Source: Chloroflexi bacterium RBG_13_51_36 (GTDB lineage: Bacteria; Chloroflexota; Dehalococcoidia; GIF9; AB-539-J10). From it: DNA of 64,000 bases. The translations under genes and the position numbers were made by a program. The notes beneath the pieces are model-generated. The model saw only the letters and a program-made list of their open reading frames with translations, was not told the origin of the DNA and searched no databases. Positions 28,352 through 43,640 of the stretch are shown here, in pieces. The stretch spans positions 18,209 through 82,208 of the forward strand of contig MGMS01000010.1 in the NCBI GenBank assembly GCA_001796515.1, in the 5' to 3' direction. Each line of letters starts with the position of its first letter. Position 1 is the first letter of the stretch.

Positions 28352-28573
28352 TCATAACAGCTTGGTGAATTCGCTTACCGACAATCCCGCCTGACGAATA
28401 ATAGCTCTTAGTGTTCCTCTATCCAATTCCTTATGAAGAGGGACAACCAATTGACAAAACGGCTCATCCCGCCTGACCGTCACGTGACTACCCTCATGCC
28501 TTTTGGGATAGAATCCTGCCTTTGCCAGAGCTTTGATACACTTTTCGCCTGATAGGACAGGAAGCTTGCTCAT
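28352..28573 (-). CDS. hicA: HicA-family toxin (mRNA interferase)
   Basis: KALAKAGFYPKRHEGSHVTV, YcfA/HicA fold. Overlaps hicB by 4 nt. Confidence 0.8.
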   Translation of the reverse strand: MSKLPVLSGEKCIKALAKAGFYPKRHEGSHVTVRRDEPFCQLVVPLHKELDRGTLRAIIRQAGLSVSEFTKLL

Positions 28574-28776
28574 ACCACTACCACTGATACGGCAAACTTC
28601 TCTTTGGGCACAGGAATGCTATCCTCCTCGAGGGCGTGGATATAACAGCTTATCGCTTCCTTGATGTTCTTTATTGCTTCCCTTTTTGTCTTTCCCTGGC
28701 TGACGCAGCCGGGCAAGCTAGGGCACTCCACTACCCAGTAGCCATCCTCACCGGGATATAAAATAACCTCTCGCAT
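28570..28776 (-). CDS. hicB: HicB-family antitoxin
   Basis: YWVVECPSLPGCVSQGKTKREAIKNIKEAI motif of the HicB/UPF0150 family. Confidence 0.8.
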   Translation of the reverse strand: MREVILYPGEDGYWVVECPSLPGCVSQGKTKREAIKNIKEAISCYIHALEEDSIPVPKEKFAVSVVVV

Positions 28777-28869
28777 TTCCCCTCCTCTCTAATTCTCTTG
28801 GCACGTCGGTTCTCGCTTTCAGCAATTATACCTTGTTTTGCTGCTATTTTTAACAGGAACAATAACCCT

Positions 28870-29390
28870 GTGTAATTGCGAGCCCTTTCTCTATTCCACT
28901 GTCATTGCGAGGAGCCCCGAGGAATCGGGGCGACGCGGCAATCTCATTTGCCGAATCCCAAACACGATTGTAGTGCGACCTTTCAAGGTCGTGCAATGCC
29001 GCCTTGGCACGAGGCCAAAGCCTCGCACTACATTTTTCGCTTTGATTTGTCATTTTGATATTGTTTAGGATTTGGTGCTTGGGATTTCCCTTCAGAGATC
29101 GCTTCGGCACTGTCGTGCCTGGCAAAGACACACCCCATGTCATTGCGAGGAGCCCCGATGAATCGGGGCGACGTGGCAATCTCATTTGCCAGATTCCAAA
29201 CACGATTGTAGTGCGACCTTTCAAGGTCGTGGAATGGCGCCTCGGTACGAGGCTAAAGCCTCGCACTACATTTTTCGCTTTGATTTGTCATTTTGATATT
29301 GTTTAGGATTTGGTGCTTGGGATTTCCCTTCAGGGATCGCTTCGTCGCCCGCGGCTCCTCGCAACGACACACTCCACGTTACGAAGGCGT
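28870..29390. repeat. Two tandem ~238-bp units (28901-29138 and 29139-29376), each headed by a TGTCATTGCGAG module and containing three hairpins
   Basis: The units are near-identical. Hairpins: GCCCCGAGGAATCGGGGC, GCGACCTTTCAAGGTCG(T)GC and CGAGGCCAAAGCCTCG. A degenerate head copy lies at 28870-28884 and an inverted partial copy at 29343-29375. Confidence 0.8.
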
Positions 29391-29430
29391 TGACCAAGGG
29401 CAACGGATTCCATTCCGCAGCGGTTAGATG

Positions 29431-29436
29431 TATAAT
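29431..29436 (+). promoter_or_regulatory. Putative -10 hexamer TATAAT for the first membrane-protein paralog
   Basis: TATAAT lies 58 bp upstream of the ATG at 29495. A near-identical upstream block is repeated before the paralog. Confidence 0.4.
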
Positions 29437-29494
29437 GGAATGAAGAGGGTATAAGAACAAACTGACAATGACTAACCCTCAAAGGAGTGAGTAG

Positions 29495-29857
29495 ATGCGT
29501 GTTTTGAAGGTCATTTATGTTCTGGCTATAGCGGCTTCGATTATTGCGCTTGTCATCGCGGGCGTCGATGCCTTCTATCCTGAGTCTTCACCATGGCAGA
29601 ATTCAGAGGTACATGCCAGGAACGTATTTTTCGTTGCCTTGCCTCTGGGCTTGGTGCTTGCTGTCGCGGGCGCCTTCCTCCAGAGAAAGTCGGGTATCTT
29701 CGGGGCCGGCTTGATTCTGGGGGGCGTGGGGACGATGGTATATGCAATTGTGCCTTATGGGCTGGACAGCACACTGAGATTTGCCGGCATCGCTGTCATC
29801 CTGCTTGTGCTGATCTTCGTGGGCAACAGGGTCTTCCTTTCCCTAAAAAGAACCTAA
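29495..29857 (+). CDS. Small membrane protein, paralog 1
   Basis: 120 aa with 3-4 TM segments. N- and C-terminal regions are shared with the gene at 30009. Confidence 0.6.
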   Translation: MRVLKVIYVLAIAASIIALVIAGVDAFYPESSPWQNSEVHARNVFFVALPLGLVLAVAGAFLQRKSGIFGAGLILGGVGTMVYAIVPYGLDSTLRFAGIAVILLVLIFVGNRVFLSLKRT

Positions 29858-29945
29858 CGTGTTTCTCTAAACACTGATACTTTGTCTTGCCGGCGTTTTT
29901 GACAGGAGCGCCTGCTCGCAGATTCCATTCCGTGGTAGTTAGATA

Positions 29946-29951
29946 TATAAT
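29946..29951 (+). promoter_or_regulatory. Putative -10 hexamer TATAAT for the second membrane-protein paralog
   Basis: Same spacing (58 bp) to the GTG start at 30009. The flanking sequence CCATTCCG...TAGATATATAATGGAAT is duplicated. Confidence 0.4.
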
Positions 29952-30008
29952 GGAATCGAGGGGGAGATAGAAAAACGGACGTTGACTAACCCTCGAAGGA
30001 GCGAATAG

Positions 30009-30467
30009 GTGCGTATTCTTAGAGTCATCTACGTTCTGGCTATAGCGGTTGCGCTCACCGTGCTCGTCATCGTGGGCGTACAGACTTTCTATCCCGCCCC
30101 CCAGTACCCGGACTGTTATGAGCTGCTGGGGCCCGCGCCGGATTACGAGAGCCCTGAGTATCAAGAGTGGGATCAAGAATGCACCAGCCTTGGGGACGAA
30201 TACCGGCAGGAAGCAGCGGTGCATGACAGGAACACATTCTTCATTGTCCTGCCTCTGGGGGTGGTGTTTGCCGTCGTGGGCACGGTCATACTGAGAAGGC
30301 TGGGCATCTTTGGGGTCGGTTTGATTCTGGGCGGCCTGGGAACGATGATATTCGCGGTAGTACCTTATGATCTGGACAACATACCGAGGTTCATCGGCGT
30401 TGCTGTCATCCTGGCTGTGCTTATCTTCGTAGGATATAAGGTCTTCATCTCGTTGAGAAAAAGCTAG
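30009..30467 (+). CDS. Small membrane protein, paralog 2 (with a 30 aa insert)
   Basis: 152 aa. MRILRVIYVLAIA... and the C-terminus match paralog 1. Confidence 0.6.
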   Translation: MRILRVIYVLAIAVALTVLVIVGVQTFYPAPQYPDCYELLGPAPDYESPEYQEWDQECTSLGDEYRQEAAVHDRNTFFIVLPLGVVFAVVGTVILRRLGIFGVGLILGGLGTMIFAVVPYDLDNIPRFIGVAVILAVLIFVGYKVFISLRKS

Positions 30468-30506
30468 CGTGTCTTTCCATAATAATAGAACAGGGGGAAT
30501 ATAAAC

Positions 30507-31403
30507 ATGCCAGTTATCCGTACTCCGGACAAACGTTTTTCCAAATTGCCCGGTTTCCCTTTTGCCCCGCACTATATCGAGCTCAACGGACTGCGCATAC
30601 ATTACGTGGATGAAGGCAAAGGACAGGCCATACTTTGTTTGCACGGCGAGCCCTCATGGTCGTTCCTGTATCGTAAGATGATTGCCGTTATGTCCAAAAA
30701 GCACCGCGTTGTAGCTATGGACTTTCTCGGTTTTGGCCGGTCCGATAAGTTTACCGAGCGGGAAGCATATTCCTTCAGGATGCACCTGGGCACGTTGACG
30801 GGCTTCATAAAGGCCATGGACCTCAAGCAGATAACCGTTGTGGTCCAGGATTGGGGTGGGTTGATTGGCCTGGCTGCGGTCGCCCATATACCGGACCGTT
30901 TTGCCCGGCTGGTTATCATGAATACCGGCCTGCCCACGGGCAAGGGCAAGCCCGGCGAAGCTTTCCTGGCCTGGCGAAAGTATGCCGAGACCCATCCCGA
31001 CATGCAGATCGGGCAGTCCATACTGGGCGGCATGGCCCACCCCGAGAAGATTACTAAAGAAGTCGTGGCTGCCTATGAGGCGCCCTTTCCCGACGTTAAA
31101 CACAAGACCGGGGCTGCCGTGTGGCCGCTCCTCGTTCCCATCAGACCCGACGACCCCGCTGCCGCCGAAATGCGGCATGCCCGGGAGGTCCTGTCCAAGT
31201 GGGACAGGCCGGCCCTGGTCATGTTCTCAGATAAAGACCCTATTACGGGCGGCGGTGACAAGTTCTTCCGCTCTCTTATACCTACAGCCAAAGACCAGCC
31301 GGACATTACCATCAAGGACGCCGGACACTTCCTCCAGGAAGAGAAGGGCCGGGAAATATCGAAACATATACTGGCTTTCATGAAAAGAACGCCTGTCTCC
31401 TAG
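30507..31403 (+). CDS. Haloalkane dehalogenase family alpha/beta hydrolase
   Basis: FPFAPHYIELNGLRIHYVDEG and VQDWGGLIGL resemble the N-terminal and nucleophile-elbow regions of DhaA/DhlA-type dehalogenases. 298 aa. Confidence 0.8.
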   Translation: MPVIRTPDKRFSKLPGFPFAPHYIELNGLRIHYVDEGKGQAILCLHGEPSWSFLYRKMIAVMSKKHRVVAMDFLGFGRSDKFTEREAYSFRMHLGTLTGFIKAMDLKQITVVVQDWGGLIGLAAVAHIPDRFARLVIMNTGLPTGKGKPGEAFLAWRKYAETHPDMQIGQSILGGMAHPEKITKEVVAAYEAPFPDVKHKTGAAVWPLLVPIRPDDPAAAEMRHAREVLSKWDRPALVMFSDKDPITGGGDKFFRSLIPTAKDQPDITIKDAGHFLQEEKGREISKHILAFMKRTPVS

Positions 31404-31791
31404 CACTTCGGCCATCATATCCTGCTCTGCCGGCATTCATGACAGGAGCACGAGCCTCCCGCATCATTGCGAGCCATTTCCCTACCTCAGTGACATTGCG
31501 AGCCCTTTCTCCCCCTCTTAAGATAAGAGGGGTCAGGGGAGTTATGAAGGAAGCCCCTGTCCCCTTGTCATTGCGAGCGGAGCGCGGCAATCTCGTTAGC
31601 TAAATTCTGACTCCTGAACTCTGACCACCGCCTGCTATCTGCTGCCGCTTTTGTCATTTGGATTTTGAGCTTGATTTGGCATTTGGGCTTTGTCATTTGC
31701 CATTACGGGTTCCCCTCTTAAGATCAGAGGGGCAAGGGGAGTTATGAAGACGAGACGGTACGCTGGCCACTGTCAATGGGCTTGACAAGCG

Positions 31792-31821
31792 CCTGGGGAA
31801 GGAGTATCTTCATTGTAGATA
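31792..31821 (+). promoter_or_regulatory. Putative promoter of mazEF (-35 TTGACA; weak -10 region), duplicated at 32848-32877
   Basis: CTTGACAAGCGCC...GTAGATACT lies about 45 bp upstream of the GGAGG RBS and the ATG. Confidence 0.3.
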
Positions 31822-31840
31822 CTGTGAATGGAGGTTCGAT

Positions 31841-32083
31841 ATGAGGACGCGTGTTCAGAAATGGGGTAACAGCCTCGCTTTGCGCATTCCGAAATCTTTC
31901 GCTGACGAAGTGGGGCTCCGGAAAGAAACATCCGTCGAACTATCGCTGGCAGACGGGAAAATCGTGGTCGCGCGGCTGACTAAGCCGGAGCTGACCCTCG
32001 AACAGCTTCTATCAAAGGTCACCAAAGACAACTTGCATCACGAGGTTGATACCGGTTCCGCCGTGGGGAACGAGACGTGGTAG
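31841..32083 (+). CDS. mazE: MazE/PemI-like antitoxin (AbrB/SpoVT fold), copy 1
   Basis: MRTRVQKWGNSLALRIPKSFADEVGL swapped-hairpin motif. 4-nt overlap with mazF. Confidence 0.85.
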   Translation: MRTRVQKWGNSLALRIPKSFADEVGLRKETSVELSLADGKIVVARLTKPELTLEQLLSKVTKDNLHHEVDTGSAVGNETW

Positions 32084-32424
32084 ACCGCCGTGCCTACGTG
32101 CCTCGTTGCGGAGATGTGGTGTGGATTAGCTTAAATCCGCAAGCAGGTCACGAACAGGCCGGGCGCCGGCCGGCCGTAGTGCTGTCGCCGCAAAGCTATA
32201 ACAGCAAGGTAGGACTGGCCATCCTTTGCCCGATAACCGGCCAGCCCAAAGGCTACCCTTTCGAGGTTCTTCTTCCCGCGGGCTTGCCGGTGGCAGGAGC
32301 GATATTATCTGACCAGGTTAAAAGTCTGGATTGGCGAGCCCGACGTGCCGAATTGATATGCGCTTTGCCGGCCGGGACGATATCGGAGGCGCTCCAGAAG
32401 CTGGGAACGTTGTTGTCGGAATAA
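32077..32424 (+). CDS. mazF: MazF/PemK-family endoribonuclease toxin, copy 1
   Basis: PRCGDVVWISLNPQAGHEQAGRRPAVVLS fits the PemK/MazF family. Confidence 0.85.
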   Translation: MVDRRAYVPRCGDVVWISLNPQAGHEQAGRRPAVVLSPQSYNSKVGLAILCPITGQPKGYPFEVLLPAGLPVAGAILSDQVKSLDWRARRAELICALPAGTISEALQKLGTLLSE

Positions 32425-32896
32425 GAGAACGTGCCTTGCCTGTCGGTATTTCCAACAGGAGCACGAGCCTCCCGGGTCATTGCGAGCCATTCCCTACCTC
32501 AGTGACATTGCGAGGCCTTTCTCCCCCTCTTAAGATAAGAGGGGTCAGGGGAGTTATGAAGGAAGCCCCTTCCCTTTGTCATTGCGAGCACTTTCTCTCC
32601 CCACTGTCATTGCGAGGAGCCCCGATTAATCGGGGCGACGCGGCAATCTCGTTAGCTAAATTCTGACTCCTGAACTCTGACCACCGCCTGCTATCTGCTG
32701 CCGCTTTTGTCATTTGGATTTTGAGCTTGATTTGGCATTTGGGCTTTGTCATTTGCCATTACGGGTTCCCCTCTTAAGATCAGAGGGGCAAGGGGAGTTA
32801 TGAAGACGAGACGGTACGCTGGCCACTGTCAATGGGCTTGACAAGCGCCTGGGGAAGGAGTATCTTCATTGTAGATACTGTGAATGGAGGTTCGAT

Positions 32897-33139
32897 ATGA
32901 GGACGCGTGTTCAGAAATGGGGTAACAGCCTCGCTTTGCGCATTCCGAAATCTTTCGCTGACGAAGTGGGGCTCCGGAAAGAAACATCCGTCGAACTATC
33001 GCTGGCAGACGGGAAAATCGTGGTCGCGCGGCTGACTAAGCCGGAGCTGACCCTCGAACAGCTTCTATCAAAGGTCACCAAAGACAACTTGCATCACGAG
33101 GTTGATACCGGTTCCGCCGTGGGGAACGAGACGTGGTAG
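32897..33139 (+). CDS. mazE: MazE-like antitoxin, copy 2 (identical)
   Basis: Translation identical to 31841-32083. Confidence 0.85.
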   Translation: MRTRVQKWGNSLALRIPKSFADEVGLRKETSVELSLADGKIVVARLTKPELTLEQLLSKVTKDNLHHEVDTGSAVGNETW

Positions 33140-33480
33140 ACCGCCGTGCCTACGTGCCTCGTTGCGGAGATGTGGTGTGGATTAGCTTAAATCCGCAAGC
33201 AGGTCACGAACAGGCCGGGCGCCGGCCGGCCGTAGTGCTGTCGCCGCAAAGCTATAACAGCAAGGTAGGACTGGCCATCCTTTGCCCGATAACCGGCCAG
33301 CCCAAAGGCTACCCTTTCGAGGTTCTTCTTCCCGCGGGCTTGCCGGTGGCAGGAGCGATATTATCTGACCAGGTTAAAAGTCTGGATTGGCGAGCCCGAC
33401 GTGCCGAATTGATATGCGCTTTGCCGGCCGGGACGATATCGGAGGCGCTCCAGAAGCTGGGAACGTTGTTGTCGGAATAA
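33133..33480 (+). CDS. mazF: MazF-family toxin, copy 2 (identical)
   Basis: Translation identical to 32077-32424. Confidence 0.85.
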   Translation: MVDRRAYVPRCGDVVWISLNPQAGHEQAGRRPAVVLSPQSYNSKVGLAILCPITGQPKGYPFEVLLPAGLPVAGAILSDQVKSLDWRARRAELICALPAGTISEALQKLGTLLSE

Positions 33481-34007
33481 GAGAACGTGCCTTGCCTGTC
33501 GGTATTTCCAACAGGAGCACGAGCCTCCCGGGTCATTGCGAGCCATTCCCTACCTCAGTGACATTGCGAGGCCTTTCTCCCCCTCTTAAGATAAGAGGGG
33601 TCAGGGGAGTTATGAAGGAAGCCCCTTCCCTTTGTCATTGCGAGCACTTTCTCTCCCCACTGTCATTGCGAGGAGCCCCGATTAATCGGGGCGACGCGGC
33701 AATCTCGTTAGCTAAATTCTGACTCCTGAACTCTGACCACCGCCTGCTATCTGCTGCCGCTTTTGTCATTTGGATTTTGAGCTTGATTTGGCATTTGGGC
33801 TTTGTCATTTGCCATTACGGCTTCCCCTCTTAAGGCATGTCCTGAGCGAAGTCGAAGGATCAGAGGGGTCAGGGGAGTTATGAAGGAAGCCCCAATCTGT
33901 CGAGGCGAGGGGCCTCAGACACTGCGGAGCCGGTTCCGAGCCCAGGTAAGAACACTGCGTCCGCCCGGACTTCCCGGCTGGATGCCCGGGCTTGAGCTGC
34001 GCCCGTC

Positions 34008-35210
34008 TTACTGGACCATGAATCCTTTGGCATGTCTTCGGGCGGCCGGGTCCCTGGCCTTTAGCATCAACAGGCCCACTACAAAACAGAGGAGCGCCGG
34101 TGCCAGGAAGGGCATGAACGTTACCGCCAAATGCCCTGTATAGTCGGCTATATAAGTCACAGTTATGGGACCGAGCACCAGTCCGATATCTCCCATGACA
34201 CGGTAGATTCCCATGGATGTGCCCAGCTTGCCTTTAGGCGCCACATCGGCAGGCCAGGCAGCGATGGAGCCTTGTAGGCCGGTGGCCAGACCGTAGAAAG
34301 CCATGATGCCCGTAAGGCCGGCCAGGCTTCCCTGCGACGGAATCAGCAGCACGGCAATACCGCTCAGGAACAGGCAGGCCATTATAGGTTTCTTTCTCCC
34401 CACCTTATCCGAGAGCCAGCCGGAGGGGAAACTGCATACAGAGGTAACGATGGCCGCCACCGTCAGCACTATTCCGATCCTCTCCTCGGACAGGCCCAGG
34501 TTGAGGGAGGCATACAGTGGAACAAGCGTTGAACGTACGCCGGACCTCAGGAAAAACAGCGCCAGGACCGAGCAGTTCACCAGCATAAATGGGCCGTTCG
34601 ATATGACGCTGATGATGTCTTGTATGCGCATTTTCGGCCCTGTTGCCTGTGCCGAGTCCGCCGGCTCCTTCAAGCGCAATGTGGCGATTAGGCCGATAAA
34701 GGCGAATATAGCGTATGCAAAAAAGGGTGCGTTCAGGCCGAAATGAGCAGCGGTATAGCCGCCGATAGTGGGCCCGAAAGCAGTGCCCGCGAATATAAGC
34801 CCCGTATACAGCGACATATACCGGCCCCGGGACTCGCCGGCGGTCACCTGCGCCACCCAGGTTGTTGCCGAGGTTATGTAGAGGGCGGAACCTAATCCTT
34901 CCACAACACGTGCGAAAATCAGCCAGGCGTAATCTTCGGCTGTGCCGGCTGCGATTGACGACACGATTATCAACACCAACCCGAGTATCATGTTTCTTTT
35001 CCTGCCGAAACGGTCTGCCAGGAAGCCCGCCGGTATGTCCATCACCAAACGCGCCAGGGCAAACGCCGATACCGCCCATCCTACAAGCGCTACGGGAATC
35101 GAGAATGAAAGTGCATACTGGGGAAGGACAGGTGAAATGATGCTGATACCCAGTATAACGAAGCCGGAAACCAGTGAGAGGTTCAGGATTTCAAAGAGCC
35201 GCTGCTTCAT
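34008..35210 (-). CDS. MFS transporter
   Basis: 400 aa, 12 TM segments, GRKRN loop motif. Confidence 0.8.
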   Translation of the reverse strand: MKQRLFEILNLSLVSGFVILGISIISPVLPQYALSFSIPVALVGWAVSAFALARLVMDIPAGFLADRFGRKRNMILGLVLIIVSSIAAGTAEDYAWLIFARVVEGLGSALYITSATTWVAQVTAGESRGRYMSLYTGLIFAGTAFGPTIGGYTAAHFGLNAPFFAYAIFAFIGLIATLRLKEPADSAQATGPKMRIQDIISVISNGPFMLVNCSVLALFFLRSGVRSTLVPLYASLNLGLSEERIGIVLTVAAIVTSVCSFPSGWLSDKVGRKKPIMACLFLSGIAVLLIPSQGSLAGLTGIMAFYGLATGLQGSIAAWPADVAPKGKLGTSMGIYRVMGDIGLVLGPITVTYIADYTGHLAVTFMPFLAPALLCFVVGLLMLKARDPAARRHAKGFMVQ

Positions 35211-35387
35211 TTACAGAAAACCCATTATGTGCATGCCTCATACAGTTGTCAACAATCATTCTGCAGGGTGTGCCATATGAGCCCAGAAAGAGAAAGGCGG
35301 GGAAATATCTCAGCATATACTGGCCTTCATAAAGAAGAACGCCTGTTGTCCGGTACTCCAGCTATTCTGCTTGTTTTGCTGGTATTC

Positions 35388-35530
35388 TTAACAGGAGCAC
35401 TAACCTCTCGTGTCATTGCGAGTCCCGGCTTGTCGGGGCGTGGCAATCTCATTAGCGCTGACTACTGACTCCTGACCCCTGACTGCTAGTCCCTAATCCC
35501 TAATCCCTAGTCCCTGACCCCTGCTCTTGC
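35388..35530. repeat. TTAACAGGAGCA...TGTCATTGCGAG-hairpin-GGCAATCTC module followed by a CT-rich CTGACCCCTGA tract
   Basis: Same module architecture as at 28853-28945 and 32455-32650. Confidence 0.6.
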
Positions 35531-35677
35531 CCGGAGCACCTGCTTGAAGCCCGAGGACATCGCACCTGCCTAGAGCCGAATCCTTGAAGAGCTACATAAA
35601 GGTTTAGTTCTTGTTGGTCACTACTGGTGGGTGTATAATCGAAGTACCACAAGAGTTGATTTCGGAGCAGCGATATT

Positions 35678-36865
35678 ATGCGAGTGCGGATAACCAATCA
35701 ACCAGCAGCAGAGCGAGATGAATGGCTCGGCTATAATCTCCGCTCTCTGCTTGAATCTAACAGAGAAAATGGGTTCGTTGTCTTTCGGTTTATGGTTGCC
35801 TTTGTTAGAACGAGTGGCTTGGTCCGAATAGCTGGTGCAATGGATTCATTTAGAGGAAATGGCGGACGGGTTGAGGCTGTGTTAGGTCTCGACAGCAGGG
35901 GTACTTCAAAGCAAGCTTTGCGCATGCTTCACGGATTAGCTCATGAAGTCTATGTATATCATGACACATCTCCAAACAGAACATTCCATCCTAAGTTATA
36001 CCTACTAGCAAATCCGGGAAACAATGCCATAGTGCTTATAGGATCCTCAAATCTGACTGCCGGTGGATTGTTCACTAATTACGAGATTACGGCGCAAATG
36101 GACCTTGATCTGGCTAATCCGGATGATTCTTATCTTTACAGGAGTATTGATCAGATATTCACTTTCTATAAAGACGCTTCCACAGGGTGTTCCTTGCGGT
36201 TATCTGAAGAGCTTATGAATCGATTGGAGAACGAAGAGCCAAGCCTTCTATTAGATGAAGAAACAGCTCTTGATGAGTCAGAGCTGACGGATGCAGGGGT
36301 TGTTGCTGAGGGACCTGGCCGTTACACAGCAGGGGGCTTGTTCAGTACACGTCGCTTTGCGCCGGCGCCCCAGCCAGATTTGCGTGCACCAAGGCACGGC
36401 AGAAGAGTTGCTGGGAGGCCAAGAGTCATCCGGAGAGGATTTTGGAAAGTACTGTCAAACTTCGATGTCAATCCTGGTAGTGCTCCGGGGCAGATAATAG
36501 TACCGATACGATTCGCACACTACTTCCCGCCAGTTACAATGACACACGGGCCAGACGCGGGCGGAAGAGGCAGGCAATGGGAGTGCTCTCTAAGTGTTTT
36601 GCTTAGTGGTCCGAGCGGAAATATTGTCGCTGATGATGCGAGGTTCATTATCTACGAGCCACATACGGGACACCCTCGCCCAAATACTGAATCCAGATTT
36701 ACTTTTCATAACAGTGCTATATTCAGCCTATTGTCCACCGGAGACATGCTGATTTTTCAGCGCCAGACGTCTCAGCATTGGTTCCGAGTTACCCTCGCTA
36801 GTCCGGGCAGTCGTCAGTATCAATTTCATAGGGGACGGACCAACCTGAGATTCGGTGAAATATAA
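35678..36865 (+). CDS. BfiI-like type IIS restriction endonuclease: PLD-family nuclease domain plus C-terminal B3-like DNA-binding domain
   Basis: The nuclease motif FHPKLY...(17)...GSSNLT places Glu 11 residues after the Asn, as in the BfiI active site. The C-terminal FWKVLSNFDVNPGSAPGQIIVPIRFAHYFP matches the B3 pseudobarrel motif K.L..SDV....L.IP..FA..YFP. The gene is low in GC. Confidence 0.6.
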   Translation: MRVRITNQPAAERDEWLGYNLRSLLESNRENGFVVFRFMVAFVRTSGLVRIAGAMDSFRGNGGRVEAVLGLDSRGTSKQALRMLHGLAHEVYVYHDTSPNRTFHPKLYLLANPGNNAIVLIGSSNLTAGGLFTNYEITAQMDLDLANPDDSYLYRSIDQIFTFYKDASTGCSLRLSEELMNRLENEEPSLLLDEETALDESELTDAGVVAEGPGRYTAGGLFSTRRFAPAPQPDLRAPRHGRRVAGRPRVIRRGFWKVLSNFDVNPGSAPGQIIVPIRFAHYFPPVTMTHGPDAGGRGRQWECSLSVLLSGPSGNIVADDARFIIYEPHTGHPRPNTESRFTFHNSAIFSLLSTGDMLIFQRQTSQHWFRVTLASPGSRQYQFHRGRTNLRFGEI

Positions 36866-36924
36866 CAACCAGCCTGCATTAGTACGAATTCTCTTCAGGA
36901 ATACGGATACGGGGCCAAGTCGAC

Positions 36925-38127
36925 CTAATTGGAGTACACCAAGACATAAGAGTGTTTAGGCACCGTCTTGTATCCTTTTATAAACGATGCTGTATACTTT
37001 CGTTGATCATATTGGTAACTGTCAAGTCTAGCAAATCCCGTTTTCCTGCATAATTCATCATAGACCGCCTTCATGGGAACCAATTCACCTTTGTATACCG
37101 AATCACCGATTACGATAGCCAGTATGCTCGAGGGCTTCAGAATTCGCTTAATGCTTTGTAGGCAAGAATTCATTAGATTTCGATAACTGTTCGGGTCTTC
37201 CGATTTATCGCAATGACGGTTACGTGAACCTATCTCGGCGCTTTGTACGATCTTGTGGTCGTAGCCTAGACAGAACATCCTTAGCTTGTGATAAAGATAG
37301 TAATCATAAGAATTCATATATGGCGGTGATGTAACGATGATATCGGCCACCGAATTCGGTACGCAGGCCAGAGAAGTCGCATCACACCGCATAATAGTTG
37401 CTGAGGAGCTAGCCAGTCGGCTGAATTCCAGAGAACGCGGAATCATATCGGTCAGCTTCTGGGCATATGCTCTCAACGCAAAGCCTGGTGGATGATTCTT
37501 ATCAACAGCCACCCAGCGTGTATCACTTTCCTGGCGGGATACCTTTACTATCACGGCCGAAAAGGCTGTGAGCGCAAGAGTACGCGATTGTGGCGATACT
37601 AACTGTTCAATGGCTTTTCTGACATATCCCAGTTCAAGGAGAACTTCGTTATCAAACCAATGGTCTCTGTTCTTGAAATTTGGAATAGAATCTGCCAAGT
37701 TTGAGTGCACGACATCTGAAATATTTAGCAGCCCCTCATTAACATCTAACAGCAGCTGGTTTAGCTCGTCAACGTGAGAACTTTCAAGTTTTGTGGTTTT
37801 CGCTTCACTTACCAGACAGGCAATAGGGTTCAGATCAGTACCAATTGACGGTCTCCCTTGAAGGCAAGCTTCGACAAGAGTTGTACCGCTACCACAGAAC
37901 GGGTCGACTACTAGTTGCCCAGGCATTGTGTATTTTTCAATTAGTGCCCGAGGGATGTGTGGTATAAACTTTGCAGGGTACGGGTGAAAATTGTGCGTGA
38001 GGTAATTCTTATCCCGCACCTTATCTAGGTCTATCCCCAGACCTCTTAGCCCTGGTTCTAAGAAGTCGTCAGTCTTCAACTGAAAATCGAGTTGCCTTGC
38101 TGTACTAAGTTGCGTTTGCCCTCTCAT
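36925..38127 (-). CDS. DNA methyltransferase (N4-cytosine or N6-adenine), SPPY type
   Basis: FHPYPAKF, then VVDPFCGSGTT (motif I), then IVTSPPYMNSYDY (motif IV). 400 aa. Confidence 0.85.
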   Translation of the reverse strand: MRGQTQLSTARQLDFQLKTDDFLEPGLRGLGIDLDKVRDKNYLTHNFHPYPAKFIPHIPRALIEKYTMPGQLVVDPFCGSGTTLVEACLQGRPSIGTDLNPIACLVSEAKTTKLESSHVDELNQLLLDVNEGLLNISDVVHSNLADSIPNFKNRDHWFDNEVLLELGYVRKAIEQLVSPQSRTLALTAFSAVIVKVSRQESDTRWVAVDKNHPPGFALRAYAQKLTDMIPRSLEFSRLASSSATIMRCDATSLACVPNSVADIIVTSPPYMNSYDYYLYHKLRMFCLGYDHKIVQSAEIGSRNRHCDKSEDPNSYRNLMNSCLQSIKRILKPSSILAIVIGDSVYKGELVPMKAVYDELCRKTGFARLDSYQYDQRKYTASFIKGYKTVPKHSYVLVYSN

Positions 38128-39070
38128 CTTTCTTGAAGGTCAGCAGATATGAGTGTCCTATATTCAAATAGAAATTTCGCGAAGGGTAACCCAGGCATAC
38201 TAGGGGGCGAAACCGAGTTTGATCATAAATCCTTATATCCCACAATACAAAACCTGCTGATTCTGCACATTCAATGATGTCACCATGGAAGTTGACATAC
38301 ACAATTCCTTCCTTCAGGTTCCGAAAATCCTTTACTACCCAAACTGCATATGAAGAGTCACGTAGAACACGGTAAGACGAAGCGAAAACTTCTTTGATGG
38401 AGCACAGACAGTTTTCATAGCTCATGTTGCTTAAATCTTCGCCTTTTGAAGAATAGGGCTGAGGATTTGCTACCGGATTGATGCTGGAGTGTTCTCTCCA
38501 TTTATACGCGAAGCTTCCCGAGATATTCTTCAGCAAGTTAGAATACGGAGGACTGGTTAGAATAAAGTCAACACTGCATGGAGCAACATGCAATTCCATA
38601 TTTCTCGCATCATCAATGATAACACGCACTTGATCTGAAGTGCATCCAGACGCTATTAGGTCTTTCTGAGCTATATTTGCGAATTCATCGTTTAATTCAA
38701 TACCAATTCCCCTCCTACCTAGCTGATAAGCCGCATCCAGAGTTGTACCTACGCCGACAAAAGGATCGAGTACTAGCTCTCCCTTCTTAGTGAATATTGA
38801 TATTTGTTGTAGCGCGAGCGATTCGGGAAAACAAGCTCCGTGTCGTCTCTGCTTGTCGGATCTATTATCTGGATAACTTTCGACACTCTTACTTGCTTTC
38901 GCCCATTCTGCCCCAGTTAGTTCGTTCAGTTCCCTGGGCCTTTTATCCTGTCCCTTGCCGAAGCATGCTTGGCACAGCGTTCGGGCTAGACGCTGAGTGC
39001 CTATTGGTGCTTCGGTGAGTCTACCACACGATTGGCACACGAATTTTGTCCTCCACCTAGTAACCATCAA
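38105..39070 (-). CDS. Second DNA methyltransferase, SPPY type, with N-terminal Cys4 zinc ribbon
   Basis: CQSCG...CQAC, then LVLDPFVGVGTT, then ILTSPPYSNLL. 321 aa. Confidence 0.85.
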   Translation of the reverse strand: MMVTRWRTKFVCQSCGRLTEAPIGTQRLARTLCQACFGKGQDKRPRELNELTGAEWAKASKSVESYPDNRSDKQRRHGACFPESLALQQISIFTKKGELVLDPFVGVGTTLDAAYQLGRRGIGIELNDEFANIAQKDLIASGCTSDQVRVIIDDARNMELHVAPCSVDFILTSPPYSNLLKNISGSFAYKWREHSSINPVANPQPYSSKGEDLSNMSYENCLCSIKEVFASSYRVLRDSSYAVWVVKDFRNLKEGIVYVNFHGDIIECAESAGFVLWDIRIYDQTRFRPLVCLGYPSRNFYLNIGHSYLLTFKKDERANAT

Positions 39071-39136
39071 ATCCCTCAGATCCTAGTATCTATTTGCATT
39101 CCAGCTTTAACCACCGAACATGTTAATTTGCCTTGG

Positions 39137-39340
39137 TCATAACAATAGCAGTTGCTCTCGCTCCAATATATCTTTTAAGACACCATTCAGTTTTTCCATT
39201 GCCAGTGGTGATGGTCGAGTCTTCCCCAGTTCCCATCTTTGGACGGTGTTAAGACAAACACCTAAGGATCTAGCCAACTGCTCCTGTGTCCACCCTTTGC
39301 GGTCCCGGCAGTGCTTGATCTTGGCTGCTAATTGATCCAC
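39137..39340 (-). CDS. XRE-family HTH regulator, possible controller (C) protein of the R-M system
   Basis: RKGWTQEQLARSLGVCLNTVQRWELGK helix-turn-helix. 67 aa, immediately upstream of the methyltransferase pair. Confidence 0.7.
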   Translation of the reverse strand: MDQLAAKIKHCRDRKGWTQEQLARSLGVCLNTVQRWELGKTRPSPLAMEKLNGVLKDILEREQLLLL

Positions 39341-40278: not shown

Positions 40279-40370
40279 TGCTTCATTCACTCATTTTGGG
40301 GTGACTCTTCAGGTTTGCGATTATTTGAACAACAAATAGTCCGAGCATGATGAGCCCCCTCTCTAGTCCC
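40279..40370 (-). pseudogene. 3-prime remnant of a paralog of the membrane-protein gene at 42221-42661
   Basis: The reverse strand translates to ...LIMLGLFVVQIIANLKSHPKMSE*, nearly identical to the C-terminus of the 146 aa protein (LIMLGLFIVQIIANLKSHPKMSG). There is no upstream ORF body. Confidence 0.55.
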
Positions 40371-40471: not shown

Positions 40472-40753
40472 TTGGTGCAGAGGACAGTCATGTTGACAGA
40501 ATACATCGAGGCGGCCATGAGGAAAGCTACGTATGAAAAGCTTGAAGATGGCACTTACTGTGGGAAGATTCCTGAGTGCCCTGGAACAATCGCCTTCAGC
40601 GAAACCCTTTATGAATGCCAAATCGAGCTGAGATCGGTTCTTGAAGGCTGGCTGCTGGTCAAGATAAGGCACGGTGATCACTTGCCCGTCATAGACGGAC
40701 TCGACCTGAACAAGGGCATACCAGCGCTTGAGGGAACCGTCGCCCATGGCTAA
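40472..40753 (+). CDS. hicB: HicB-family antitoxin
   Basis: YCGKIPECPGTIAFSETLYECQIELRSVLEGWL fits HicB. Its stop overlaps the hicA ATG (ATGGCTAA). Confidence 0.75.
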   Translation: MVQRTVMLTEYIEAAMRKATYEKLEDGTYCGKIPECPGTIAFSETLYECQIELRSVLEGWLLVKIRHGDHLPVIDGLDLNKGIPALEGTVAHG

Positions 40754-40979
40754 ATGGGCGCCGTGCAAACGCAGGGTTTTCATAAGGAAATTAGCCGGAT
40801 TGGGTTTTAGCCCACCTGAACCAGGTGGGCGTCATTTTTGTATGCGTTACGGGACACATACGCTGGCCATCCCCAGCAATGCGGAATATTCTGTGCCCCA
40901 ACTCAAGGCACTTCTAAAGGAAGTGGAGCACATGATCGTAAGGAAGATTTCCTTGCAGGAATGGCAGTCGCTTGATTGA
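40746..40979 (+). CDS. hicA: HicA-family toxin
   Basis: KRRVFIRKLAGLGF...GGRHFCMRYGTHTLAIPSN matches the HicA/YcfA pattern. Confidence 0.7.
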   Translation: MAKWAPCKRRVFIRKLAGLGFSPPEPGGRHFCMRYGTHTLAIPSNAEYSVPQLKALLKEVEHMIVRKISLQEWQSLD

Positions 40980-42220
40980 GAGATTCTGAGTTTTGGGGAA
41001 CCCCGCCCGCCGCAGGTTGCTCAGAGTGACATCCCTTTTTGTCTTTCTGAATGGATTGGAGCGGAGCCCCCGTGTCATTCTCAACAAAACGAAGCGGAGT
41101 GAAGAATTTCGATTCTTCGCTGTTCTCCCTCATAGGGTGAGAGGGAGTTAGAGGGAGTTACGAACTCTTCTACCGTCTACTGGCTCCGGACTACTCTCCA
41201 ATGTCTAATCTCCCTGTCTCCAGTCTCTTCAACGTATCTCCACTGTATCTCTACTAATCTCTAACTGTCTCCAATCTCCAGTGTCTCTAGCGTATCTCCG
41301 CTGTATCTCCACTAATCTCCCTGAATCTCTAGCAGTCTCTATTGTATCTCTAGCCCCTAGTCCCTGACCCCTGGCCCCTAACTGCGCCATTTCCCCCTTG
41401 TTCGAATAAGGAATTCATGCTAATCTCTCCTTGGAACTCGTGTGCTACCCTGACAAATCAAACCCCGCGGGCGCGGTTTCTCAGAACCTGACTGTAAACC
41501 CAACACGGGTTAGGAGGAAGCGCGGTGGCCAGAAAGGCAACCGGAATGCCCGTAAACATGGCTTCTATTCCGGTACCCTTAGCCCTGCCGAAACATCCCA
41601 ACTGTGGAACATTACCAATCTGGAAGGCGTTGACCCTGAAATAGCGCTCATTCGAACCCCTGTGTCATTCTGAATGAAGCGAAACGGAATGAAAAATCTC
41701 TGCAGATTCTTGGTTGTTCTCCCTCTTAGAGCCTGCCCTGAGCTTGCCGAAGGGGTAAGAGGGAGTCAGACCTGCCTGCCGAACAAGTCCTTTGGCAGGC
41801 GGGGAGAGTTACGAACTCTTCCACCGACTCCCGCCTCCCCGTGGTCTTCATTTGTCATGCGGATTTTGGCATCTGGACTTGGTTTGTCATTTGGGCCTCC
41901 CTGCGTCACTCCGCCAACCCCCACCGCTCGCAAATATGAAGGGCAAACCGACGAAACGAATCGTGTGTATTTTAAGGGTTAAATGTGCCCGAGGTAATCG
42001 CCCTACGTATGAAAAACATCTGTTGAACTCCAGAAAAAATAGCCATTTTTACAGAACGAATCATCCCGGCTTTCCTCATGCTCTTCCCCCCTCTGACAAG
42101 GAGGGAAGGGTGTCATTTGGGCTTTGGCACTTGAGCTTTATCTGCCATTTGTGTTGTCTTCTAGCTTCAACTTAAACGTAAACTGTGCTGCGGCGTATTA
42201 TGGTTGGAGGGGTGCCTCCT
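40980..42220. repeat. 1.2 kb gene-poor, repeat-dense region
   Basis: Paired modules at 41040-41200 and 41655-41840 (TGTCATTCTsAA...GAAGCG...TTCTCCCTC..AGAGGGAG..GTTACGAACTCTTC). A ~230-bp CT-rich tract at 41165-41390 has an internal ~65-bp tandem duplication. A second copy of the 40279-40370 repeat starts at 42226. Confidence 0.6.
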
Positions 42221-42661
42221 TCACCCGCTCATTTTGGGGTGACTCTTCAGGTTTGCGATTATTTGAACTATAAATAGCCCGAGCATGATGAGCCCCCACA
42301 CCAAAGAAGTCTTCCACGGCATCACCACAAATCCATAGTTCATCGCGTAATAGAGACCCAGGTAGGGTACTATCCACTTCCAGTTTTTCCTCCAGTTCTC
42401 TCGAAAATTGATTTTCAGTACATAGTCAAATAGCCATTCTACAAGTAGAAAGGCCAGGAAGATCCCGAGAAAGATGCTGTATCGTACCGTTTCATTCTCC
42501 CGTTGCACCAGGAAAATTCCACAGGCTGCGGGAATGGCCAGCAGTAAATAAATCCAACCGAATCGATTAACAAGGTCCAGTCTCTTCTTTCGGACAAGAA
42601 AGAGCAAAATCAGAAAGACGCTGTTCACTAATCCGAGGACAAAAAAATACACTTCTAACAT
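42221..42661 (-). CDS. Small integral membrane protein
   Basis: 146 aa with 4 TM segments. The last ~23 codons are encoded by the repeat that is also present at 40279-40370. Confidence 0.6.
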   Translation of the reverse strand: MLEVYFFVLGLVNSVFLILLFLVRKKRLDLVNRFGWIYLLLAIPAACGIFLVQRENETVRYSIFLGIFLAFLLVEWLFDYVLKINFRENWRKNWKWIVPYLGLYYAMNYGFVVMPWKTSLVWGLIMLGLFIVQIIANLKSHPKMSG

Positions 42662-42975: not shown

Positions 42976-43209
42976 CTAGAGCTTTTCCAGGATTTTGTGA
43001 TACTCATCGACGCTGATACCCATATCGCGCAGTATCTTGCGCAGCAAAGGCCGCACAATAACCTGCGCACCGTGATCCGGGATAACAATTATGCGGCCTT
43101 CAGGGTTTTTGAAACTATTATGACTCCCCTGGCGACGCTTCCACTCGAAACCACAACTTTCCGCTACTTTTCTTAATTCTCTGTAGGTAACCAGGCGGAG
43201 TCTGGTCAA
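42976..43209 (-). CDS. hicA: HicA-family toxin
   Basis: KVAESCGFEWKRRQGSHNSFKNPEGRIIVIPDHG matches HicA. Confidence 0.75.
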   Translation of the reverse strand: MTRLRLVTYRELRKVAESCGFEWKRRQGSHNSFKNPEGRIIVIPDHGAQVIVRPLLRKILRDMGISVDEYHKILEKL

Positions 43210-43460
43210 GCCAATACCTCAACGCGCCAGGTACCGACGAAATCGGGGAGTGGTTCTTCAGGCGAGGCTGTCTTGAGGTACACAGATATGGCTTCACGAA
43301 CATTAGATTCGAGGGAGGGCAAATCCGGCGCCTGTGTATAGCAGCCAGGAAGCTCAACGACTTCGCCAACCAGCCATTTGCTTTCGGGGTCTCTTTCCAC
43401 TACTACGGTATATGAATTTTTCACCTTGTTAAACGCTGGTTTAGCAGGTTTTCTCCTCAT
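43206..43460 (-). CDS. hicB: HicB-family antitoxin
   Basis: YTVVVERDPESKWLVGEVVELPGCYTQAPDLPSLESNVREAISVYL matches HicB. Start at the internal Met of the 255 aa ORF; the rest of that ORF covers repeats. Confidence 0.7.
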   Translation of the reverse strand: MRRKPAKPAFNKVKNSYTVVVERDPESKWLVGEVVELPGCYTQAPDLPSLESNVREAISVYLKTASPEEPLPDFVGTWRVEVLA

Positions 43461-43479: not shown

Positions 43480-43640
43480 TTAATAATAGCACTGGAAGGA
43501 ATAGGTGGCAATCTCTTAGCCCCGCCGAGATTGCTTCGTCGCCTTTGGCTCCTCGCAAAGACATCGGGGAGATTGCGTAGCTTGTTCCGAAGCGCCAGCG
43601 AGGAATCTCGTTCCTCGCAATGACAAAGAAAGGTGTCACT
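43480..43640. repeat. Reverse-orientation copies of the TGTCATTGCGAG family (CCTCGCAATGACA)
   Basis: GGCTCCTCGCAAAGACA and TTCCTCGCAATGACAAAG. Lies between hicB and rpoD. Confidence 0.5.

Follow-up and report, generated by a model that had tools for sequence, protein, structure and literature searches.

Does 'Chloroflexi bacterium RBG_13_51_36', a Dehalococcoidia member from the groundwater of the Rifle aquifer, carry one toxin-antitoxin cassette twice in tandem, or was the second copy created in assembly? The question is raised by a 64,000-nucleotide stretch of this metagenome-assembled genome (MAG), here called the window, in which a mazEF module is written twice on a chromosomal scaffold of 173.7 kb with unique flanks. 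The window contains no Ns. For the RBG 13-ft sediment sample (BioProject PRJNA288027), run SRR1605725 has a Logan contig, L164, with 100% identity. The source assembly was made with IDBA-UD (maximum k of 100) from 150-bp reads with inserts of about 500 bp, and because it is a short-read MAG, the choice between duplication and artefact cannot be closed from the sequence alone. A preliminary description of this DNA, which posed a recent duplication and an assembly artefact as alternatives, thus framed the problem correctly.

The repeat is exact. Every base from 31583 to 32764 is identical to the base 1056 positions downstream, without exception in a run of 1182 positions, and the perfect repeat occupies 31583-33820 (2238 bp, 2.12 copies of a 1056-bp period). 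A perfect match of 1182 nt cannot arise by chance, and the base-perfect tandem repeat reported earlier is in the sequence; its ends, placed then at 31596 and 33836, were off by 13 and 16 nt. It is the only long exact repeat in the window. Tandem Repeats Finder, whose longest period is 500, is blind to it, and a separate repeat search reports it. The layout is R-U-R-U-R, where R is a segment of 126 bp with exactly three occurrences (starting at 31583, 32639 and 33695) and U is 930 bp long. On the forward strand, the first direct repeat (R1, 31583..31708), delimited like the other two by exact-match and run analysis, consists of the closing arm CGCGGCAATCTCGTTAGC and a 107-nt tail. U1 (31709..32638), the unique part of the first unit, contains a hairpin module (31712-31749), the promoter, mazE, mazF and a 3' module array (32440-32638). 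The middle repeat, R2 (32639..32764), leads into U2 (32765..33694), which is the same as U1 and carries the promoter at 32838-32866, mazE at 32897-33139 (OGN97638), mazF at 33133-33480 (OGN97639) and the module array at 33496-33694; R3 (33695..33820) follows. The sole sequence specific to the duplication is 32638-32765 (the end of U, R and the start of U), and no ORF runs across it. The phase in which unit boundaries are drawn is arbitrary, and only the ends of perfect identity hold information.

Both ends lie in pre-existing repeats. On the right, the third, partial copy is perfect for 126 bp and continues with one mismatch (32765 G versus 33821 C), 13 matching bases and a 24-nt insertion. 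This right flank (33821..33893, forward strand) repeats in diverged form the hairpin module that opens U, with G>C at 33821 and the insertion, GCATGTCCTGAGCGAAGTCGAAGG (33835-33858), in the hairpin loop. On the left, a module array (31427..31582, forward strand; repeat search and alignment) comprises a T-module, three GTCATTGCGAG-type modules and a CCCCTCTTAAGATAAGAGGGG hairpin; it corresponds to the array at the unit end, from which it has diverged, and lacks a 44-bp module. The flanking arrays are homologous yet mosaic, with patches of 84-99% identity and indels of 44 nt and 24 nt, which makes the 126-bp block a natural patch of high identity.

The genes in each unit constitute, firmly as far as sequence can tell, a canonical and self-contained type II mazEF cassette, with a promoter, a palindromic candidate operator, mazE and an overlapping mazF. 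In the first copy (forward strand) promoter and operator fall in 31782..31834. The promoter, TTGACA-17-TATCTT (-35 at 31782-31787, -10 at 31805-31810; 10 of 12 matches in a promoter scan), is overlapped at its -10 by the palindrome AGTATCT-N7-AGATACT (31803-31823), a putative operator, and the ribosome-binding site GGAGG lies at 31830-31834. Promoter, palindrome and ribosome-binding site are invariant in seven homologous cassettes, that of the window and those of six relatives, which are otherwise 80-90% identical; the earlier claim of a complete module with its own promoter is borne out. The first mazE (31841..32083, OGN97636) encodes an AbrB/SpoVT-type antitoxin of 80 aa (PF04014, E=2.6e-10), with matches to the solved structures PDB 7d2n_E (8e-20) and 1ub4_C (5e-13). 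GenBank names this protein 'MatE', which is wrong. The first mazF (32077..32424, OGN97637) encodes a predicted endoribonuclease toxin of 115 aa, which matches PF02452 over profile positions 2-108 of 109 (E=6.1e-25) and solved MazF proteins by phmmer (7d28_A, 2.8e-38; 1ub4_A, 2e-26). The GTG start of mazF (32077) overlaps the mazE stop (32081-32083) by 7 nt. MazE and MazF are each identical between the units, as had been stated. A plasmid or phage origin of the cassette was rejected, since plasmids give only distant (66-80%) similarity to the mazF coding sequence and phages give nothing.

The repeat lies between two convergent genes. To its left is a gene for a haloalkane-dehalogenase-like alpha/beta hydrolase (30507..31403, forward strand; OGN97635; Pfam Abhydrolase_1, E=2.4e-22), with orthologues at 77-90% identity in Dehalococcoidia MAGs, and to its right one for an MFS transporter (34008..35210, reverse strand; OGN97640; Pfam MFS_1, E=5.7e-61). 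Beyond the latter, the repeat search found a remnant of the hydrolase 3' end (35283..35456, forward strand), 84% identical to 31334-31384 and continuing with a T-module, a GTCATTGCGAG module and the closing arm. The remnant represents an older direct repeat that brackets both mazEF copies and the MFS gene, and it is conserved in contigs L004, L009 and L025. Further local duplications in the window, older and diverged, lie at 28866-29370 and 29406-30477; elsewhere, L011 has three hydrolase 3' ends, L094 a partial second mazF (95% identical) and L120 a second, diverged mazE 1.1 kb downstream of mazF. Both the locus and the family are thus duplication-prone. In L009, L025 and L005 the hydrolase gene lies directly next to the MFS gene, with no mazEF between them in this syntenic comparison, while a single mazEF follows the hydrolase gene in L007 (a 345-kb contig) and one copy is found in each of the five closest metagenome contigs (L084-L088). 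Since related Dehalococcoidia have none or one mazEF at the site, a duplication, if there is one, is recent and confined to this lineage. No conspecific genome turned up in the genome scan (best match 90% amino-acid identity), and no relative closer than 93% in the JGI metagenome scan.

The modules that make up the arrays are short, GC-rich, palindromic, intergenic, over-represented, clustered and present in both orientations, that is, REP/BIME-like. GTCATTGCGAG occurs 21 times against 1.15 expected, always clustered between genes; inverted pairs of modules are present in L004, L015, L019 and L022, and the module array folds into several hairpins (z=-2.4). Rfam gave no match for the modules at gathering thresholds or at E<=1 and tRNA/tmRNA scans gave nothing, so the modules are in no curated RNA family. 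A literature search on the motif strings returned no description of the element, only unrelated primer matches. Among enterobacteria, F'128 formed via recombination between imperfect REP sequences (Kofoid et al., 2003, cited in PMC1428787). When lac is amplified in E. coli, REPs are not preferred as junctions.

We lean towards a mazEF duplication that is real, recent and due to unequal exchange within R. The ancestor would have had one mazEF cassette between two imperfect REP/BIME-like arrays that shared the identical 126-bp R. Sister chromosomes may then have undergone a single unequal homologous exchange in R, by a RecA-type reaction, replication slippage or template switching, which produced the left flank, R-U-R-U-R and the right flank, with the crossover somewhere inside R. 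The layout would be the exact outcome of one such exchange between 126-bp repeats flanking a single cassette. The perfect run measures 1056+126 nt, with divergence immediately outside on both sides, and a run of period plus 126 nt with diverged surroundings is the signature of a single exchange in a 126-bp repeat: identity begins where the left array diverges and stops where the right one does. Tandem duplications between direct repeats are routine. The proposal that repeat modules mediated the recombination holds insofar as R begins within the closing arm (GGCAATCTC) that belongs to a module of the GTCATTGCGAG type and stops 3 nt short of the CCCCTCTTAAG hairpin, but the substrate would have been the 126-bp R and not the short GTCATTGCGAG and CCCCTCTTAAG motifs. 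A Pfam scan that covered the large ORFs in the 64 kb and the small ones around the locus found no integrase, transposase or other recombinase, which fits host recombination. Both copies retain promoter, antitoxin and toxin, and the dosage of toxin and antitoxin would be doubled in balance. The duplication is probably recent, neutral and, as the same recombination can undo it, unstable. We infer both the mechanism and the physical existence of two copies. Perfect identity, which had been taken to imply either a very recent origin or an artefact, says less than was assumed: because the 500-bp inserts do not reach across the 1056-bp unit, the assembler writes one consensus for both copies, and even a real duplication therefore need not be base-perfect or very young.

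Somewhat less than an even chance attaches to an artefact of copy number, in which the genome holds a single cassette (R-U-R) and the R-U loop was walked twice by the assembler or the scaffolder. The source data leave the multiplicity of this loop unfixed because R (126 bp) exceeds the maximum k of 100 and the unit exceeds the insert. A wrong repeat number in a scaffold and identical sequence artificially joined to itself, in up to three or more repeats, are both documented metagenome assembly errors, described by the laboratory behind the source assembly (Chen et al., 2020, PMC7111523). That every mazEF-carrying relative has one intact copy points the same way. De Bruijn assemblers, however, would normally collapse such repeats and not expand them, a scaffolder would presumably have no reason to place U twice absent read pairs from U to U, and real duplications can be demonstrated in the history of the locus. 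A length of 126 as a k-mer artefact (k-1 for k = 127) is dismissed, since k did not exceed 100 in the source assembly and R ends at points of natural divergence; for the latter reason the repeat ends are equally consistent with a biological origin.

An independent MEGAHIT assembly bears on both readings. Its contigs L001 (31462-32764) and L165 (33702-35530) are compatible with one or two copies, and two copies are never written out. They join through R as a one-copy path, and L001 passes from the left flank through the start of R unbroken; a complete k=141 graph of two copies would fork at that point. On the other hand, the last base of R (32764) is also exactly the last of L001, which suggests that reads disagree (G versus C) in the context of the U end. 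A stop at this base is expected if reads from the U end and R continue with 'G' (into U) as well as with 'C' (into the right flank), whereas a simple coverage dead end at R would be a coincidence of roughly one in ten, as we estimate by reasoning on k=141 graphs. The contig ends thus give a weak hint of a U-R-U junction. The junction-specific sequence is in no contig of any collection searched, and exact-protein look-ups for MazF, MazE, the hydrolase and the MFS transporter returned nothing but short contigs with an end inside R or at its edge. Should the second copy be an artefact, the cassette, the repeat arrays and the hot spot described below all stand.

It is unlikely that the doubled mazEF is a snapshot of an undescribed shuffling of cassettes in Dehalococcoidia, in which small toxin-antitoxin and defence cassettes (mazEF, hicAB, AbiE-like and NYN), with a portable 35-60-nt 3' T-module and REP-like arrays, insert at the 3' ends of chromosomal genes and leave duplicated ends of 80-300 nt with no linked integrase; they would be integrated, excised and amplified through Campbell-type homologous exchange at the portable homologies or by a recombinase acting in trans. 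Less credible still is that the T-module (about 35-60 nt, after each cassette gene) is an att- or attC-like site served by a recombinase elsewhere in the genome, as in an integron, a CALIN (an attC cluster lacking an integrase) or a cis-mobilizable element, with mazEF inserted twice. CALINs are by definition without an integrase. The T-module does lie 3' of the stop codon of the hydrolase gene, mazF and other cassette genes in several lineages, the similarity among its copies stops sharply past ACAGGAGCA(C), L007, L086 and L087 have toxin-antitoxin and defence cassettes in arrays with T-modules between them, and duplicated 3' ends of target genes bracket inserts. The duplicated unit, however, is not bounded by T-modules; its identity extends through 126 bp of unrelated tail and ends at ordinary divergence, as for homologous exchange, and the duplicated gene ends are 80-300 nt long, a spread not seen with a fixed att site. 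Nor were complementary R''/R' (RYYYAAC/GTTRRRY) pairs found at cassette borders or anywhere in 30000-35700, the two incidental pairs being at 29852-29944 and 35755-35887. With neither such border pairs nor an IntI or other integrase among the ORFs scanned in the window, an integron or attC identity was rejected.

The biology of the cassette and of its duplication is ordinary, and the duplication itself is of little import: a balanced doubling of mazEF without an obvious phenotype, maybe confined to the assembly. If the junction is true, it would provide a case from nature, in an uncultivated lineage, of an addiction module amplified through repeats. The surrounding locus, in which the hydrolase and MFS genes are separated by a hypervariable gap rich in repeats and toxin-antitoxin cassettes lie between duplicated 3' ends of target genes, is more interesting. 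It documents a hot spot across several Dehalococcoidia lineages, where toxin-antitoxin and defence cassettes come and go beside undescribed mosaic repeats, with no linked recombinase. The practical value is a flag on a public MAG, in which OGN97636-OGN97639 are annotated as two gene pairs at a copy number that the data do not support.

Compared with known systems, the proteins are unexceptional. Like chromosomal MazE-MazF pairs (E. coli MazEF, PDB 1ub4; PDB 7d28/7d2n), the cassette combines a PemK/MazF-fold toxin of 115 aa with an AbrB/SpoVT-type antitoxin of 80 aa encoded upstream, in overlapping genes with a palindrome over the -10 of their own promoter; it appears to differ only in its Dehalococcoidia host and its two identical tandem copies, nothing functional being distinguishable. 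As an assembly product, the repeat resembles the errors described by Chen et al. (2020, PMC7111523) in that an identical stretch, hundreds of bp long or longer, appears two to three times in a scaffold from an IDBA-UD assembly of that laboratory, detectable only by a repeat finder or read depth; unlike these, it is inside a 173.7-kb chromosomal scaffold and its ends are the natural divergence of pre-existing flanking repeats. The arrangement also recalls the toxin-antitoxin cassettes of integrons and CALINs. Integrons and CALINs hold small cassettes with their own promoters in arrays, with a conserved short element after each, and these can be duplicated. Here small own-promoter cassettes are likewise arrayed with unrelated ones, each followed by a conserved short element, but no IntI and no attC-like R''/R' core pairs were found, some cassettes are on the opposite strand, and the end points of the duplication fit homologous exchange. 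REP/BIME-mediated duplication in enterobacteria offers another parallel: the direct repeats at the join point lie inside mosaic arrays of small GC-rich palindromic intergenic modules, and the product is head-to-tail and reversible by the same recombination. The module sequences (GTCATTGCGAG..GGCAATCTC, the CCCCTCTTAAG hairpin and the T-module) are unrelated to enterobacterial REPs, and whereas the enterobacterial exchange uses imperfect repeats of about 35 bp, here it would have passed through a perfect block of 126 bp.

The window contains a perfect tandem repeat at 31583-33820 (2238 bp, 2.12 units of 1056 bp) with the architecture R-U-R-U-R, in which R is a 126-bp block and U a 930-bp part unique within the unit. 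Self-comparison at an offset of 1056 (s[i]==s[i+1056]) gives a single unbroken run of 1182 positions (i=31583..32764), and R occurs exactly three times in the window (31583, 32639, and 33695). This run bears out the perfect 1056-bp tandem duplication reported in the preliminary description, whose coordinates were 13-16 nt off. Identity breaks on the left at 31582 versus 32638, and on the right at 32765 (G) versus 33821 (C), beyond which 13 further bases match before a 24-nt insertion in a hairpin loop. The insertion (33835-33858, GCATGTCCTGAGCGAAGTCGAAGG) falls precisely within the CCCCTCTTAAG/CAGAGGGG hairpin loop and is a small repeat module nested within another. The window has no Ns and, besides the 1056-bp repeat, no long exact repeat; Tandem Repeats Finder is blind to this period.

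Each unit encodes a MazE of 80 aa (PF04014, E=2.6e-10) and a MazF of 115 aa (PF02452, E=6e-25), with a 7-nt overlap between the mazE stop codon and the mazF GTG. By sequence, both have clear relatives among solved MazE/MazF pairs (for MazF, 7d28_A at 2.8e-38 and 1ub4_A at 2e-26; for MazE, 7d2n_E at 8e-20 and 1ub4_C at 5e-13). A promoter scan places TTGACA-17-TATCTT upstream of mazE (31782-31810), with the palindrome AGTATCT-N7-AGATACT (31803-31823) overlapping its -10 and a GGAGG ribosome-binding site farther 3'. All three elements are invariant between this cassette and six aligned homologues, which elsewhere are 80-90% identical; this argues for a conserved promoter in the unit and for the palindrome as its likely operator, and upholds the earlier claim that the module carries its own promoter. 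The cassette core common to relatives spans 31781-32464. Exact-protein matching places the locus on a 173,697-bp contig of the MAG "Chloroflexi bacterium RBG_13_51_36." GenBank annotates both mazEF copies (proteins at the locus are OGN97635 to OGN97640) and names MazE (31841-32083 and 32897-33139; OGN97636 and OGN97638) "multidrug transporter MatE," a misannotation that probably arose from similarity of names.

Arrays of small modules surround the cassette core. The T-module (..CTGCCGGTATTTTTAACAGGAGCAC; ATACCCTGCTTTGCCGGTATTTTTAACAGGAGCA..) lies 15-40 nt 3' of the stop codons of cassette genes, and is found behind hydrolase, mazF, and other cassette genes in several lineages; the likeness between copies stops sharply past ACAGGAGCA(C). 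Its copies in the window are confined to 28.8-35.4 kb (28838, 29888, 31427, 32440, 33496, and 35376), and related contigs have it at 11964 and 13551 (L004), 10910, 11700, and 14187 (L007), 172 (L084), 8721 and 9500 (L086), and 946 and 3051 (L087). Candidate roles are a 3' RNA element and a recombination boundary. Modules of the GTCATTGCGAG type end in a closing arm, GGCAATCTC; a further type is the CCCCTCTTAAGAT(A/C)AGAGGGG hairpin. The window has 21 occurrences of GTCATTGCGAG where 1.15 are expected, all in clusters between genes; in other genomes it is mostly found as inverted pairs. The predicted fold of the module array consists of several hairpins (z=-2.4). The modules match no family in Rfam, and a literature search found no description of them; they behave like REP/BIME-type mosaic elements. 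R begins in a closing arm, continues through a 107-nt tail, and ends 3 nt short of the hairpin module. The left array (31427-31582) and the one that ends U (32440-32638) are diverged copies, 84-99% identical in patches and differing by a 44-bp indel. A separate 238-bp tandem repeat at 28866-29370 (two copies, ~96% identical, with a 79-nt exact stretch) is composed of a GTCATTGCGAG..GGCAATCTC module, a hairpin, and an AT-rich tail resembling that of R.

The starting state for R-U-R-U-R would have been a single cassette between two imperfect direct repeats sharing a perfect 126-bp block. A single unequal exchange within this block, placed no more finely than within R, would leave perfect identity over one period plus 126 nt and diverged sequence right outside. 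To judge from the anatomy, the exchange model matches what is observed exactly, and it holds equally for an event in the cell or for an assembler walking the loop twice. The preliminary description, which had offered a recent duplication or an assembly artefact, was essentially right to offer both; the proposed mediator, small repeat modules at the unit boundaries, is refined to the 126-bp perfect repeat inside REP-like arrays.

The source assembly was made from 150-bp reads with a 500-bp target insert, using IDBA-UD (mink 40, maxk 100, step 20). With R (126 bp) longer than k and the unit (1056 bp) longer than the insert, the graph has an R-U loop of a multiplicity not fixed by the data. Because small differences between copies would merge into one consensus, perfect identity is a weak sign of recent origin. 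An independent MEGAHIT assembly (k141) of an essentially identical population (ERZ4902897) has three contigs at the locus: L003 (29255-31431), L001 (31462-32764, 100% identical), and L165 (33702-35530). L001 begins in the unique left flank and continues through R-U-R; L165 starts at the eighth base of R, the start expected of a k=119 right-flank unitig, which implies low coverage and an R left unbridged at k=141 at that point. L001 crosses the start of R unbranched, where a complete two-copy graph would fork, and together with L165 it tiles a one-copy path. L001 stops, however, on the very last base of R, as expected if reads that leave the end of U plus R split between G (U) and C (right flank), which is the tandem junction; as a plain coverage dead end, this would be, by our own estimate, roughly a one-in-ten coincidence. 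On balance, our reasoning on graph behavior weakly favors the junction (likelihood ratio ~2-4). Overall we lean slightly toward a real duplication, with at least two copies, possibly in only part of the population, and give a miscount of copy number by the assembler a chance somewhat below even.

Tandem duplications with 1-kb homology are readily lost through RecA-dependent exchange, and array instability depends on RecA. Type II toxin-antitoxin complexes autoregulate, and each copy here is complete, so that toxin and antitoxin rise together; such balanced doubling is expected to be without phenotype. For both reasons the duplication, if it is real, would in our view be neutral and transient: a side effect of the many repeats at the locus, not an adaptation.

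Orthologues of the haloalkane-dehalogenase-like hydrolase on the left (30507..31403, +) have 77-90% identity in Dehalococcoidia MAGs. In L009, L025, and L005 it adjoins the MFS gene (34008..35210, -) without mazEF; the gap between them holds a 331-aa ORF of no assigned function in L004, and in L011 an unrelated 132-aa ORF with two extra hydrolase 3' ends. A single mazEF (88.6% nt identity) lies between ~80-nt imperfect direct repeats in the 345-kb contig L007, and the five closest JGI contigs (L084-L088, MazF identity 86-93%) have one copy each. Among more distant relatives (75-81%), L094 has a partial second mazF, 95% identical, and L120 a second, diverged mazE 1.1 kb 3' of its mazF. The mazF of L002, from another Rifle sample (ANAN16-1_SAMN03842429 scaffold_245741, 551-694), is 99.8% identical to that of the window; downstream it departs at 32497, inside a GTCATTGCGAG module, and thus places the same cassette in a second context. 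Known plasmids and phages include no close relative of the cassette, and a Pfam scan of the large ORFs in the 64-kb window and of small ORFs near the locus found no integrase or transposase; the rest of the window is housekeeping chromosome (argS, recG, rpoD, suf, acs, and others). Any duplication would, on these comparisons, be lineage-specific and recent, at a locus whose history of local duplications is long.

Three hicAB-type modules lie at 28352-28776 (-), 40472-40979 (+), and 42976-43460 (-), with matches to HicA (PF07927, 1.4e-18 and 2e-14), HicB-like, and UPF0150 (2.4e-28) domains; GTCATTGCGAG clusters adjoin the first (28872-29368) and the third (43552-43624). With mazEF in the same 15 kb, they make this a toxin-antitoxin-rich variable stretch in a housekeeping chromosome. 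Directly beside the mazEF/MFS locus is a restriction-modification-like block (35678-39340) with a PLD-like protein (35678-36865), two N6/N4 DNA methyltransferases (36925-39070, -), and an HTH protein (39137-39340); block and hicAB-type modules are interleaved with housekeeping genes. An older local duplication comprises two paralogous genes for small membrane proteins of 120 and 152 aa (29495-29857 and 30009-30467) together with their promoter regions (74-77% nt identity, offsets 514-610 bp). The nine differences between the window and L003 all fall within 30386-30425, a clustering that points to a gene-conversion patch or to strain variation.

A recurrent pattern is an insert flanked on both sides by copies of the target gene's 3' end. 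That of the hydrolase (31334-31450) is found again at 35283-35400, on the far side of the MFS gene, and so brackets both mazEF copies and that gene; remnants of it are kept in L004 (13452-13566), L009 (..12496), and L025 (2099-2196), and L011 (11540-11783 and 13501-13646) has three such ends. A 79-nt direct repeat (40281-40359 and 42219-42297; 92% identical, spacing 1938) reflects the same pattern: the last 25 codons (42221-42298) of a YwiC-like gene (42221-42661, -) recur as a remnant at 40283-40360 (-), and between the two copies lies a 1.86-kb insert with a hicBA-like pair, GTCATTCTGAA modules, and 21-nt tandem arrays. L094 has an unrelated gene flanked on both sides by 300 nt of the mazF 3' end. 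T-modules lie between mazEF and two adjacent small ORFs in L087 (1288-2936), which by eye look AbiE-like (AbiEi/AbiEii), and between mazEF and another small ORF in L086 (8909-9460), which by eye looks NYN-like (NYN/LabA-type). The content of the hydrolase-MFS gap (nothing, the 331-aa ORF, the 132-aa ORF, or mazEF) differs in nearly every genome, and the gap is thus a hot spot of insertion and duplication. One source of the bracketing could be excised cassette circles that integrate in Campbell fashion through portable homologies; another could be a recombinase encoded elsewhere. We regard such cassette shuffling as improbable. An integron-like reading is ruled against by the lack of an integrase in the Pfam scan of the 64 kb and of attC-like core pairs at 30000-35700. 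Cassette shuffling is the sole part of the finding that could be new; the object itself is a canonical mazEF cassette with a repeat-mediated tandem duplication or an assembler miscount, both of known kinds.
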